Shown here piece after piece: positions 29,401-47,700 of a stretch of DNA of 64,000 nucleotides. Under the pieces are notes generated by a model, which worked only from the letters and a program-made list of their open reading frames with translations, had not been told where the DNA came from and made no database searches. Origin of the DNA: Bacteriovoracaceae bacterium (GTDB lineage Bacteria > Bdellovibrionota > Bacteriovoracia > Bacteriovoracales > Bacteriovoracaceae); assembly GCA_041586955.1 (NCBI GenBank), contig JBFGZE010000003.1, positions 10,603 to 74,602 of the forward strand, written 5' to 3'. The position numbers and the translations under genes were made by a program. Position 1 is the stretch's first letter. Every line of letters starts with the position of its first letter.

Positions 29401-29431
29401 AATGGCATCGATAGTTGCCATTAATTTTTTT
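29401..29431 (+). terminator. Rho-independent terminator after the NifU-like gene
   Basis: AATGGCA-N8-TGCCATT (29401-29407 / 29416-29422) followed by AATTTTTTT. It overlaps the 3' end of the convergent hemerythrin gene. Confidence 0.5.
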
Positions 29432-29906
29432 CTTGGGCATTTTCAAATAGTGGCAACATAATCAAGTCACCATCACCATGAACATCATTTATCTTCTCTG
29501 CCATTTTATAAAGAATATTGTTCTCTTTATCGATATGCTCCAATAATATTTGAGCATATTCATAAACATAAATTTTAAATTGCTCCCACGACTCTTCGTC
29601 ACCGCCTTGGACTTTTTGTAGTGTTAAACTGGCCCTATCGACAATTTCCCGGCTCTTGTCGTGCTCTCCTAGCATACAGCGAAGAGGCCCATTTTCAAGA
29701 TCCGGTTCTTTAGAGCGCATCCATAAGAAATAAATATCTTCTTCCTTAGCGTGATGATAATCATCAGCGTAACTTTTTAAAAAATGAAGAAAGGTCGTCC
29801 AATACTTCAAATCATGCCAATTTTCAGTGTCTAAAAAGCGCAGGGCATCGTTAATCGTATTGGAAATAACTTGATGCTCTTCTTTAAGAATTTCTGTCGC
29901 TTTCAT
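29421..29906 (-). CDS. Hemerythrin-like di-iron domain protein
   Basis: Four-helix pattern with EEH, HHAKEE and EH..KE metal-ligand-like blocks (HHE cation-binding type). The start lies 1 nt after the stop of the upstream NarK-DoxX gene. Confidence 0.7.
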   Translation of the reverse strand: MKATEILKEEHQVISNTINDALRFLDTENWHDLKYWTTFLHFLKSYADDYHHAKEEDIYFLWMRSKEPDLENGPLRCMLGEHDKSREIVDRASLTLQKVQGGDEESWEQFKIYVYEYAQILLEHIDKENNILYKMAEKINDVHGDGDLIMLPLFENAQEKN

Positions 29907-29907
29907 A

Positions 29908-31677
29908 TCACTTCCTCTGAGAGTTTAAAACATAATCTAAGGAGAACTTGCCACTACCTGCCCAACTAAATGCCGCTAAACAAACCAACACTAATAAGGA
30001 GAATTGAAAGTCCTGGCCATGGGATAACATGCCATCCACCCCATGAATGAAAAATGTGGCACCAAATAGAACAGGAAGGTTCAATACGGCAAATGTCCGT
30101 GTGGCAAAACCTAGTAACAAGGAGATCCCTCCGGCAATATGTGCGAAAATCACGTACCAACTGGTGACATTTTGAAAATGCCCCATATGGCCAGTCATAC
30201 TTTCAATCGTCTGCATATTGAGGATGAAATAGATTCCCTTAATCGCCAATGCCCCCCCTAAAAAGACTCGTAACATATCGAGGGGGTTAAAAGTGGTGAG
30301 AAAATCTGGAACAAGACGAGGTCTCCCTTCTTTACTGCCTTCGTAAGCTGCATCAATGGCAGCTTGCGTACGAACGGCTTCATCGTGAGCGAGTTTTGCG
30401 GCCTTCTCTTCAGCGGTCGAAAATGTAACAAAAAGAGCTGCAAAAGAAAATAAAAGGACTAATACTCCCAGGATAAGAAGTGCCTGTGGCCAGCTTAACT
30501 CAGGGGAGCGAAAAAGAAAACCTGCTCCAACCGCTCCCATATTACCGCCAGCACCAACAATACCTGATACAGACCCAAGTGCTTTTTTATTAATAAAAGG
30601 AACAACGGAATAAGTCGCCCCCTCAGACATTTGCACGAAAAGCGAAAAGATCACCATGGTGCCGATCGCGACGGGGAGAACTTTAACTTGAGAAAATATA
30701 ATAAGAGCGAAACCTTCTACAACAAGGGCCATAAATAACCAGCGAACCCTTCCCTTAAGTCCCCATTTATGTCCAAACTTATCCCCAATAATTCCACCTG
30801 TGGTACGGGCAAAAATATTCATGAGTCCAAAAAGTCCGGCGACAAGACCAGCTGTTTTAACACCGAGTCCGAAGTAATCTTTATAATAAAGAGCGGCAAT
30901 ATTATTGAGGGTCAATTCAATACCAAAGCTAGCCGCGTAAACCAGAAATAGCATCCAAACACGATGATCTTTACAGGCATCCATGAAGGAACCACCATTT
31001 TTGGAAAGTTTCTTACGAGCAGCAGTAATGCCAAGATCCTTATAATTCCCATCTGGTAAATCAGTTGTTAAAAAATAATAAGCGACACCTGTAAGCATAC
31101 AAACACCACCCGCCACAACCATGGATAATCGCCATGACCAAAAGGTGGAAACACCCCAACCAACAAAAGATGCAAAGACGATAGGCATCACCATTTGAGT
31201 AATGCCTCCACCAAGATTCCCCCACCCGGCGGAGGTCGCATTCGCCGTACCGACACAATTGGGAGCAAACATAACGGAAGTATGAAATTGCGTGATCACA
31301 AATGCGGCACCGATGGCACCAATACCTAGCCGAAATAAAAGGAAGGTTTCATAAGAGTTAGCAAACCCAATTCCCATGACAGGTAATGACCCAAGCATAA
31401 GTAACCAGGTATAACATAAACGCGGACCAATTTTATCACATAACCAGCCAATAAAGAGTCGGGCCAGGATGGTAATGGAAACCGACGCAATAATAGTGTT
31501 GCCAATTTGAGTTTTAGTTAAATGCAATTCGTCTCTAACAATCGCCATGAGAGGAGCAATACCAAACCAGGCGAAAAAACAAAGAAAGAAGGAAAACCAA
31601 GACATGTGAAAGGCACGCATCTGAGGTGTTGAAAAGTTAAAAAGATCAATTCTCGTTGCTTTGTTTTTAATTTCCAT
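29908..31677 (-). CDS. narK: NarK/NasA-family nitrate/nitrite MFS transporter fused to a C-terminal DoxX-like 4-TM domain
   Basis: The N-terminal 430 aa or so have NNP-family features (FSTPQMRAFHMSWFSFFLCFFAWFG, GWGNLGGG, GAGGNMG). After a charged linker, the last 130 aa or so (about 29911-30300) read LRVFLGGALAIKG...IAGGISLLLGFATRTFAVL...GSGKFSLDYVL, which is the DoxX signature. Confidence 0.8.
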   Translation of the reverse strand: MEIKNKATRIDLFNFSTPQMRAFHMSWFSFFLCFFAWFGIAPLMAIVRDELHLTKTQIGNTIIASVSITILARLFIGWLCDKIGPRLCYTWLLMLGSLPVMGIGFANSYETFLLFRLGIGAIGAAFVITQFHTSVMFAPNCVGTANATSAGWGNLGGGITQMVMPIVFASFVGWGVSTFWSWRLSMVVAGGVCMLTGVAYYFLTTDLPDGNYKDLGITAARKKLSKNGGSFMDACKDHRVWMLFLVYAASFGIELTLNNIAALYYKDYFGLGVKTAGLVAGLFGLMNIFARTTGGIIGDKFGHKWGLKGRVRWLFMALVVEGFALIIFSQVKVLPVAIGTMVIFSLFVQMSEGATYSVVPFINKKALGSVSGIVGAGGNMGAVGAGFLFRSPELSWPQALLILGVLVLLFSFAALFVTFSTAEEKAAKLAHDEAVRTQAAIDAAYEGSKEGRPRLVPDFLTTFNPLDMLRVFLGGALAIKGIYFILNMQTIESMTGHMGHFQNVTSWYVIFAHIAGGISLLLGFATRTFAVLNLPVLFGATFFIHGVDGMLSHGQDFQFSLLVLVCLAAFSWAGSGKFSLDYVLNSQRK

Positions 31678-46200: not shown

Positions 46201-46885
46201 TATACCAATCAGCAGATTCACCAACATCAGTTTGCTCACCCCATGTTTCAGGAGATGATGGAGGTAAATCGCAATACCAATCATAAAAAGATAAACAGAC
46301 ACCACCCATCAATTGAAGAAATCGGGCACCTGAAGCATAACTAATTTGTGACATGGCAGGAATTGGAGAAAATCCTGTAATTCGATCCGGCCCATGATTT
46401 TTTACGGTATAAATATTAGAAGCGGCAATCAATTCCAACATTTCATCCCAGGAGGCCCGTCTAAATCCTCCCTTACCACGCGCCTTTTGATAGCGCTTAC
46501 GAGCAGAGGGATTATCCTGAATCGATTTCCAAGCGTCGACAGGGTCTTTATGTTGCTTTTTGGCATCTCTCCATATATCGAGTAGAGCGCCTCTCACATA
46601 GGGGTACTTAATACGAATTGGGCTATAGAGATACCAACTAAAGGAAATCCCTCTTTGACAGCCACGTGGTTCATACGGTGGAATTTCGGGGTTTATGATG
46701 GGATAATCAACGGCCTGTAATTCCCAGGTGACAATTCCATCTTTTACGCAAACATTCCATGAACAACTACCCGTACAATTCACTCCGTGGGTAGAACGAA
46801 CAATTTTATCATGTTGAAAGCGATTGCGGTAAAACTCTTCCCACAAACGTGCTTTTGGTGAAACAATATCGTCAATCCAACTCAT
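43268..46885 (-). CDS. narG: Respiratory nitrate reductase alpha subunit (cytoplasm-facing nNar type)
   Basis: [22 protein letters not shown] is nearly identical to the E. coli NarG FS0 motif. 1205 aa. No twin-arginine signal at the N-terminus. Confidence 0.98.
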
Positions 46886-46905
46886 ATATAGTCTCCTAGA
46901 CTTTT

Positions 46906-47700
46906 TTAGTCTCGAAATGGTCTTCGTGTTTTTTTAATTCGGCCTTTCCATAAAAGATCAAAGGCACCCAGTACTAATAAGAACCCGATGATTCCCAAAA
47001 AGAAAAATTTCTTTTTGTGGCCGTTATCAACTTTTTTAGCGCGATCAACGCTCCATAAATAGGACTTGATTTGATAGGCCTCATCATCTGTCAGGGGGTT
47101 TTTCTTATAGAGACGAACCATTGTAGGAAAAGAAACGTTACGAATAACCTTCGATAGTCCTTTGTCATTATAGCTCGTATAAACATTTGTCAGATCTGGA
47201 CCCAGTCCGCCGCCACCTAGCAATCCCGCTTCACCTGCACTATGGCAGGATAAGCAAGAAGGACCGCCATTTTTCAAGCGAGTCGCCCCAGTAAATAAAT
47301 TTTTACCTTGGTCAATTTCAAAGTCGTTGGCGCTGAGGGCCGATCTTAATTTTTCTACCGCGGACTTAACCTTACCACTATCAATATAGGCAATAAGCTC
47401 TTCCGCCTCGGAATCATCCAACTCTTGGTCAGGCATCTTCTTTCTTTTGTATTTCACGAATAATTCGTTAGCGATAGGATCACCCTCTTCAATCATAGAC
47501 TGGGATTCTTGAATAAAGCGGATAAGCCATTTCTTATCCCGTTTCTTTGAAACCCCCTTTAAGTCGGGTCCAACATCGTCACCTTGTCCAACGGTATGGC
47601 AACTCATACACTTCTGTTGAAAATAAGTGGCGGGTTCAAAAGCAAGTAAGGGCGTTAACCCTAGCAAACACAGTAAAATAAAAAGGAAACGATCCTTCAT
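46906..47700 (-). CDS. narC: Dihaem cytochrome c with C-terminal membrane anchor (NarC-like)
   Basis: Signal peptide, two CxxCH motifs (CMSCH, CLSCH), and a C-terminal transmembrane helix [20 protein letters not shown] followed by basic residues. Sits 20 nt upstream of narG, as in the Thermus narCGHJI operon. Confidence 0.7.

Follow-up and report, generated by a model that had tools for sequence, protein, structure and literature searches.

A nitrate reductase gene cluster joined to Alternative Complex III in a Bacteriovoracaceae bacterium, a further example of a widespread linkage

We analyzed a stretch of 64,000 nucleotides (nt) from an uncultured Bacteriovoracaceae bacterium (Bdellovibrionota; assembly GCA_041586955.1, contig JBFGZE010000003.1, positions 10,603 to 74,602), here called the window, in which genes for a nitrate reductase (nar) and for Alternative Complex III (ACIII, act genes) stand in one block on the minus strand at window positions 29421–47700. 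ACIII is usually presented as working with oxygen reductases, and NarGHI as a quinol oxidase sufficient by itself. The window cluster, in which the gene order is a variant, adds a new lineage to a widespread and little-studied nar–ACIII linkage; the window itself is not exceptional. With a probability of roughly 0.55, we propose that the block encodes one co-transcribed nitrate-respiration module with two quinol-oxidizing branches, i.e., NarCGHI and ACIII.

Fourteen consecutive minus-strand open reading frames (ORFs) fill the block in the order narC, narG, narH, narJ, narI, actA to actF, narK1, narK2-DoxX and a hemerythrin-domain gene. We recomputed the coordinates and all 13 distances between these genes and obtained, from narC to the hemerythrin gene, +20, +45, +2, −7, +11, +22, +5, −14, −8, +16, +23, +29 and +1 nt, identical with the values of an initial annotation of this DNA. 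The nar–act junctions are tight on both sides, with gaps of 11 nt between narI and actA and of 23 nt between actF and narK1. The overlap of actC and actD is 14 nt if actD starts at the ATG at 35613 and 29 nt if the TTG of the longest ORF at 35628 is used. Most starts of the 14 genes are preceded by a Shine-Dalgarno-like motif, and the GC content is uniform over the block.

A consensus scan for hairpins followed by a T-run yielded no terminator at any of the junctions of the block. On the minus strand, weak matches alone were found within the block, each inside a coding sequence. Between 28800 and 48600, the scan gave 27 terminator-like matches compared with 17.8 ± 4.1 expected from shuffled sequences. 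The sole convincing site lies at 47909–47933 (minus strand), with a 9-bp stem containing four GC pairs and followed by ATTTTTT; it closes the upstream feoB unit and marks the 5′ boundary of the nar–act unit. From this terminator to the narC ATG there is a non-coding leader of 208 nt (47701–47908, minus strand), the putative promoter region. At the other end, where the hemerythrin and NifU-like genes converge, a short palindrome at 29401–29422, with a good T-run on the plus strand and a weak one on the minus strand, probably forms the 3′ end of both units. Because all junctions are at most 45 nt or overlapping and none contains a terminator, co-expression as one unit, as assumed in the initial annotation, is the natural reading. 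Both ends of the unit are plausible, and no punctuation was seen inside it, a layout that points to co-transcription.

The six act genes encode a canonical ACIII, for which quinol:cytochrome c or quinol:high-potential iron–sulfur protein oxidoreductase activity is predicted. Their products match the subunits of solved ACIII structures with E values of about 1e-51 to 1e-201, in the order A to F. ActA (39941–40489) is a pentaheme cytochrome c of the Cytochrome_C7 family with five CXXCH motifs and an N-terminal transmembrane helix at residues 1–28. ActB (36982–39918; E 7e-185 to 6btm_B and 2e-171 to 6f0k_B) is a fusion of a molybdopterin-like part B1 and a four-cluster Fe-S part B2, with the twin-arginine translocation (Tat) motif DRRSFLK at residues 43–49 and Fer4 domains at 750–970. 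ActC (35600–36976; E 2e-201 to 6btm_C) is the NrfD-type quinol-binding membrane subunit. The window protein shares all 29 residues listed for Rhodothermus marinus ActC (PMC5928083), i.e., nine of the quinol site, among them His139, Asp169 and Asp253, and 20 of the proton channel. ActD (35089–35613) reaches 178 bits with PF11821 and has two transmembrane helices. ActE (34539–35096) is a monoheme cytochrome c lipoprotein (Cytochrome_CBB3/Cytochrom_C) with a CXXCH motif at residue 108 and the lipobox Cys19, and ActF (33329–34522; E 1e-66 to 6f0k_F and 4e-51 to 6btm_F) is a second NrfD-like membrane subunit. Neither ActA nor ActE contains a catalytic CXXCK motif, and no match to Cytochrom_C552 was found. 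The possibility that the act-like genes are instead Psr- or Nrf-type modules was ruled out by the matches to solved ACIII structures; with these and the identical ActC residues, their earlier identification as a true ACIII is confirmed. Like canonical ACIII, the window complex has the same six subunits in the order ActABCDEF, a pentaheme ActA, a fused and Tat-exported ActB, a monoheme lipoprotein ActE and identical ActC pocket and channel residues. Unlike it, the window has no ActG or ActH, and its act genes sit between narI and narK and are not followed by heme-copper oxidase genes.

The nar genes could be assigned with similar detail, and every gene assignment of the initial annotation was borne out by family models, structure matches and motifs. 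NarC (46906–47700) is a membrane-anchored periplasmic diheme cytochrome c (Pfam Cytochrom_C), the fourth Nar subunit, of 264 amino acids (aa) with a signal peptide, CXXCH motifs at residues 31 and 149 and a C-terminal transmembrane helix at 229–253. NarG (43268–46885), the catalytic subunit with a molybdenum-bis(pyranopterin guanine dinucleotide) cofactor, scored 1509.5 bits with TIGR01580 (cut-off 1084), and the Fe-S subunit NarH (41732–43222) 663 bits with TIGR01660 (cut-off 524). NarG has no twin-arginine signal, hence its active site would face the cytoplasm, which fits the presence of two NarK-family transporters. NarJ (41184–41729) is a probable assembly chaperone of divergent sequence, which remained under the cut-off of TIGR00684 (40.6 bits; cut-off 59.35) and reached 21 bits with Pfam Nitrate_red_del; its place between narH and narI is kept in relatives.

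NarI (40501–41190; 128 bits with TIGR00351, cut-off 105.6) is the quinol-oxidizing membrane subunit with two hemes b. All four heme-ligand histidines, equivalent to His56, His66, His187 and His205, are present, and the quinol-site residue Lys86 of Escherichia coli is replaced by Arg. As the NarI heme ligands and a basic quinol-site residue are conserved, both quinol-oxidizing sites, in NarI and in ActC, look functional. We also considered that NarI of the NarC type might have lost its quinol site, which would favor electron entry via NarC, and rejected this, because Arg occurs in every compared sequence including that of Thermus.

The last three genes of the unit encode two major facilitator superfamily (MFS) transporters and the hemerythrin-domain protein. 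NarK1 (31707–33305), a NarK-family nitrate/nitrite transporter, reached 270 bits with TIGR00886 (cut-off 312) and 301 bits with the NarU model. NarK2-DoxX (29908–31677; 589 aa, 303 bits with TIGR00886) carries a C-terminal DoxX domain (PF07681) at residues 468–546. This fusion was also seen in related Bacteriovoracaceae loci, in L083 at 7900–9693 (597 aa) and in L002 as a full-length match. The terminal hemerythrin-domain protein (29421–29906) gave 66 bits with PF01814 and shows weak similarity to YtfE/RIC.

The initial annotation had called the nar part Thermus-type, and the first gene, a NarC homologue with two hemes and a C-terminal anchor, agrees with this. The cytochrome of 262 aa encoded directly upstream of narG in Thermus thermophilus JL-18 is 30% identical to the window NarC over 73% of its length, and the best full-length plasmid matches of NarC were 13 genes of T. 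thermophilus megaplasmids (about 30% identity, E 3e-12). As in narCGHJIKT of the T. thermophilus nitrate respiration conjugative element, narC comes first (262 versus 264 aa, two hemes, C-terminal anchor), narGHJI follow, there are two MFS transporters, and NarG is without the long N-terminus of the E. coli type. Moreover, feoB adjoins, where Thermus has feoAB or a feoB pseudogene beside narC (PMC7694296, PMC10609526). In contrast to Thermus, six act genes stand between narI and the transporters, the second transporter carries DoxX, NarC identity is only 30%, and no dnrST, drpAB or nrc dehydrogenase lies near the operon, its flanks being free of GAF, Crp and DUF2249 genes. In Thermus, NarC is the fourth Nar subunit, binds NarI and is required for NarG maturation; it has also been proposed as an electron carrier to Nir and Nor when complex III is repressed (PMC7694296, PMC10609526). 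NarC-type nar operons were also seen in non-Thermus lineages (L084, L087 and L088), including Chloroflexota-labelled contigs; those of L087 and L088 are without act genes. The remark in the Thermus review on the absence of NarC from nar operons of mesophiles hence looks outdated.

How common the linkage is was analyzed by scanning one genome from each GTDB species with an ActF profile. This gave at least 600 pattern matches, of which the 80 best loci were taken with 10-kb flanks and analyzed by tblastn and ORF maps; the sample is biased to relatives of the window ActF, and its counts are not frequencies for ACIII overall. Among the 48 loci that could be judged upstream, 17 had nar genes directly upstream of actA in the same orientation. 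Their sources are Bacteriovoracaceae, 'Deltaproteobacteria' metagenome-assembled genomes (MAGs), Bacteroidota/Ignavibacteria, KSB1, Marinimicrobia, Planctomycetota, Acidobacteriota and Methylomirabilis. Not among the 17 is one locus from Hydrogenedentota (L035) with a partial narK match alone upstream of actA. Overall, nar–act linkage spans at least eight phyla. Oxidase-related genes (COX1/2/3, SCO1, heme O synthase) lay downstream of act in 17 of 62 judgeable loci, and no locus was linked to both nar and cox. Our data further suggest that at least 11 NarC homologues may share contigs with ActF homologues.

In a neighbor-joining tree of ActB, ActC and ActF (54 taxa, 100 bootstraps), 18 loci formed a clade with 100% bootstrap support, called clade N here. 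Its 14 judgeable members are all nar-linked; in the other four, the upstream sequence is missing. The linkage is no chance adjacency, as it recurs in 17 of 48 judgeable loci and in this fully supported clade. Pairwise distances of NarI correlated with those of ActBCF (Spearman 0.84; Mantel test, none of 2000 permutations), which indicates that nar and act diverged together.

The additional neighbors of nar-linked loci form a nitrate/nitrite/nitric oxide (NO) setting. Hemerythrin was the commonest (six ORFs), followed by MoaA-like radical SAM proteins (five) and porins of the Alginate_exp family (PF13372; four); MoeA, MobA, MobB, ScdA/RIC (three), Rrf2 (two), NrfA (two) and, in L082, NnrS were also found. 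No nirS, nirK, nor or nos gene appeared among the 25 most frequent of 112 Pfam families in the 101 neighboring ORFs scanned, and the two NrfA genes were the only clue to the acceptor of cytochrome c that the neighbors gave. The Alginate_exp-family outer-membrane β-barrel, which recurs at nar–act and related loci (L002, 15340–16536; L012, 2405–3706; L016, L018, L019, L083 and L086), is a candidate nitrate/nitrite porin.

The initial annotation knew of no described nar–act operon. This novelty is lost, since the gene-neighborhood search shows the synteny to be widespread in public genomes, and it had been drawn in print without recognition of ACIII. A study from 2023 shows an NrfD-containing complex downstream of nar genes in 13 MAGs (PMC10732223; section 10, Fig. 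6). Its cluster consists of a five-heme cytochrome, a fused Fe-S/molybdopterin protein, NrfD, actD, 'ccoP' and a 'quinol:cytochrome c oxidoreductase subunit'. According to the authors, it corresponds to no described complex; they suggested a new NrfAH-like nitrite reductase and left the direction open (PMC10732223). This 'novel NrfD-containing complex' is ACIII, i.e., the synteny is in print but misread. Two of our loci, L009 and L070, stem from the MAG set of that study (OFTM isolates). We found no functional description of a nar-linked ACIII operon in the literature searched. Structural papers mention no more than that oxidase genes often follow act clusters (PMC5928083), and for denitrifiers without bc1 complex, ACIII has been proposed to serve nitrous oxide (N2O) reduction (PMC9270275).

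In the clade N clusters from that study, as in the window, actABCDEF directly follow nar in the same orientation, and genes for molybdenum cofactor synthesis, hemerythrin/RIC and regulators lie around them. Unlike in the window, narK precedes act there, and the two ACIII groups are separate clades with 100% support each. The window ACIII falls outside clade N into a Bacteriovoracaceae clade in which the window pairs with L002 (100%), followed by L008 with L012 (94%) and then by L006, L011 and L025. Nar linkage is missing in four of these seven members (L006, L011, L012, L025), and L012, without nar, is the sister of the nar-linked L008. The gene order also varies. The window and L002/L082 share narCGHJI-act-narK-narK/DoxX-hemerythrin; in L083, narCGHJI-act is accompanied by a divergent upstream narK-DoxX; and clade N has narGHJI-narK(-narK)-act. 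In L086 (GCA_046346845.1), narCGHJI-narK-narK-act presents the Thermus order with act appended. This locus resembles the window in that a NarC-type nar operon is joined directly to act (narCGHJI-narK-narK-actAB), and differs from it in that the transporters precede act and that a Crp/Fnr regulator gene, missing in the window, lies immediately upstream.

In at least three ACIII lineages, the nar–ACIII linkage originated or was retained. The initial annotation had an ACIII inserted between narI and narK of a Thermus-type operon. The data do not bear this out: the window ACIII nests in a resident Bacteriovoracaceae clade that includes nar-less copies, and the position of narK varies. Insertion of act into nar is one of several possible histories and is not the one with the best support. 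A resident act operon around which nar genes collected, or a move of narK, fits at least as well.

NarC-like proteins also occur at act loci without nar genes. At six of these (L010, L022, L030, L048, L055 and L077), a monoheme cytochrome 39–50% identical to the N-terminal domain of NarC is encoded directly upstream of actA; cbb3-type oxidase genes follow several of these loci. On an Acidobacteriota MAG contig (CAVWRJ010000013.1; L015, 2233–4407), actA is directly preceded by genes for a NarC homologue (40% identity, E 1e-48) and a NarI-family protein (PF02665, 103 bits), the three genes being spaced by 3 nt each. The 2.2 kb upstream of this pair gave no match to narG or narH. In the L015 NarI-like protein, the ligands of the proximal heme are lost (His56 to Arg, His205 to Pro), and the equivalent of Lys86 is missing, too. 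NarC is most likely the contact point between Nar and ACIII, if there is one.

In the two-branch module that we favor, the operon would be transcribed from upstream of narC, and the two NarK transporters would carry nitrate in and nitrite out. NarCGHI, assembled by NarJ, would oxidize quinol at NarI and reduce nitrate in the cytoplasm. ACIII from the same transcript would oxidize quinol at ActC and pass electrons via the Fe-S clusters of ActB to the periplasmic hemes of ActA and ActE, serving as a quinol-to-cytochrome c branch during nitrate respiration. This branch might feed cytochrome c-dependent enzymes encoded elsewhere, i.e., reductases of nitrite, NO or N2O or an oxidase of high affinity, in lineages that may be without a bc1 complex. 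NarC could be part of this route to the downstream enzymes, and the hemerythrin protein would probably act in sensing of, or protection from, oxygen or NO. We infer the co-transcription, the inducing conditions, the electron partners and any physical Nar–ACIII contact from the sequence.

Several observations weigh against this proposal. The 64-kb window contains no nir, nor, nos, nrf, cox or bc1 genes that would supply an acceptor for the cytochrome c branch. Upstream of narC, the best match to an FNR/CRP box has two mismatches and is within chance; TGAT-N4-ATCA-like sites in L082 and L083 cannot be aligned with the window. One NrfA gene, in L007, stands beside its own NrfH, and the dissimilatory reduction of nitrate to ammonium (DNRA) needs no ACIII there. 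Thermus NarC is itself thought to replace complex III, which makes ACIII look redundant. Finally, the ACIII of the window family may simply be the only complex III of the cell.

The last point leads to a purely historical adjacency, in which ACIII is a general, aerobic complex III beside which nar happened to land, without a specific role in nitrate respiration. The four of seven members of the fully supported Bacteriovoracaceae clade that are not nar-linked, with L012 as sister to the nar-linked L008, speak for this, as does the differing position of narK among relatives. However, the tight, terminator-free narI–actA and actF–narK1 junctions, the linkage in at least three ACIII lineages with its fixation in clade N (14 of 14) and co-divergence, and the fact that nar-linked and cox-linked loci never coincide make this account rather unlikely. 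The published view of the act cluster as a new NrfAH-like nitrite reductase was based on the nar genes upstream (PMC10732223) and is contradicted here. It is hardly tenable with six proteins that match solved ACIII subunits, with ActC quinol and proton-path residues identical to those of R. marinus, with five CXXCH motifs and no catalytic CXXCK heme in ActA, and with the same cluster type found beside oxidase genes elsewhere.

A more far-reaching alternative makes ACIII the main quinol oxidase in a supercomplex bridged by NarC, with electrons entering Nar via NarC and the NarI hemes, and with the H+/e− ratio raised by ACIII proton pumping plus charge separation across NarI. NarC and ACIII are encoded together, and an act operon in L015 also encodes NarC and a NarI-like protein, the nearest 2 kb or so upstream being free of narG and narH. 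Thermus NarC binds NarI (PMC7694296), and R. marinus ACIII forms a supercomplex with its acceptor and has been proposed to pump protons (PMC5928083). From established bioenergetics, a large part of the potential difference between menaquinol and nitrate is moreover not conserved by canonical NarGHI. On the other hand, the NarI quinol site looks intact in its heme ligands and in the basic residue at the Lys86 position, and electron transfer from a c-type heme to the lower-potential b hemes of NarI would be uphill, judged by the established midpoint potentials of E. coli NarI. We consider the bridge improbable. Run in reverse, a NarCGHI-type enzyme would work as a Nitrobacter-like nitrite oxidoreductase (NXR), giving electrons to NarC or cytochrome c, with ACIII operating backwards to reduce quinone. 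For Nitrobacter NXR, a closely similar cluster that includes a NarC homologue has been noted (PMC7694296), family models cannot distinguish cytoplasm-facing NXR from NarG, and the direction was left open before (PMC10732223). Yet the rest of the window looks heterotrophic or predatory with Bacteriovorax-like housekeeping genes, and the neighbors are NO-stress and DNRA genes, with no carbon-fixation or oxidase genes nearby. Reverse operation is very unlikely. Taken as one idea, a bridged supercomplex or its reversal as a nitrite-oxidizing module has a small chance of being right. If so, the multi-phylum nar–ACIII linkage would be the sign of a distinct mode of energy conservation with nitrate or nitrite that is so far undescribed, and in the bridged form nitrate respiration would have an H+/e− ratio above that of the textbook NarGHI redox loop.

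The conserved and co-diverging linkage suggests that ACIII also takes part regularly in the anaerobic respiration of nitrogen oxides in bacteria without bc1 complex. This is relevant to the wiring of nitrite, NO and N2O reduction in uncultured Acidobacteriota, Planctomycetota, Bacteroidota and Bdellovibrionota, and the earlier assignment of the cluster to an unknown nitrite reductase is corrected. The linkage is conserved but under-studied and raises a testable bioenergetic question. The window moreover indicates nitrate-respiring capacity in a Bacteriovorax-like lineage; the Bacteriovorax-like group is usually regarded as aerobic predators (PMC13200544).

The flanks of the unit are ordinary chromosomal genes, e.g., for KdsA, KdsB, CTP synthase, type IV pilus/secretin proteins and SodB. 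The named relatives of ActF, NarC and an RlmI-like methyltransferase are MAGs and isolates of Bacteriovoracaceae, Halobacteriovoraceae and Bacteriovorax. The best match of this housekeeping methyltransferase is only 49% identical, which points to a poorly sampled lineage. Upstream of narC, at 47979–50648, lie feoB, an ORF for a Cys-rich membrane protein of 51 aa and one of 93 aa with a weak PhoU-like match, followed by the terminator described above. Beyond the 3′ end, a NifU-domain gene (28631–29398, plus strand) is convergent with the hemerythrin gene; in L082, its counterpart (8805–9566) is divergent from narC. In Thermus, a metal–sulfur cluster assembly factor closes the nar cluster. Further upstream in the window, stand-alone genes similar to NuoB, NuoC, NuoD and NuoI were found at 52218–54971 (minus strand), with no other nuo gene in the window. 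This Nuo-like module is flanked by ORFs without family matches at 51579–52142 and 55092–57724.

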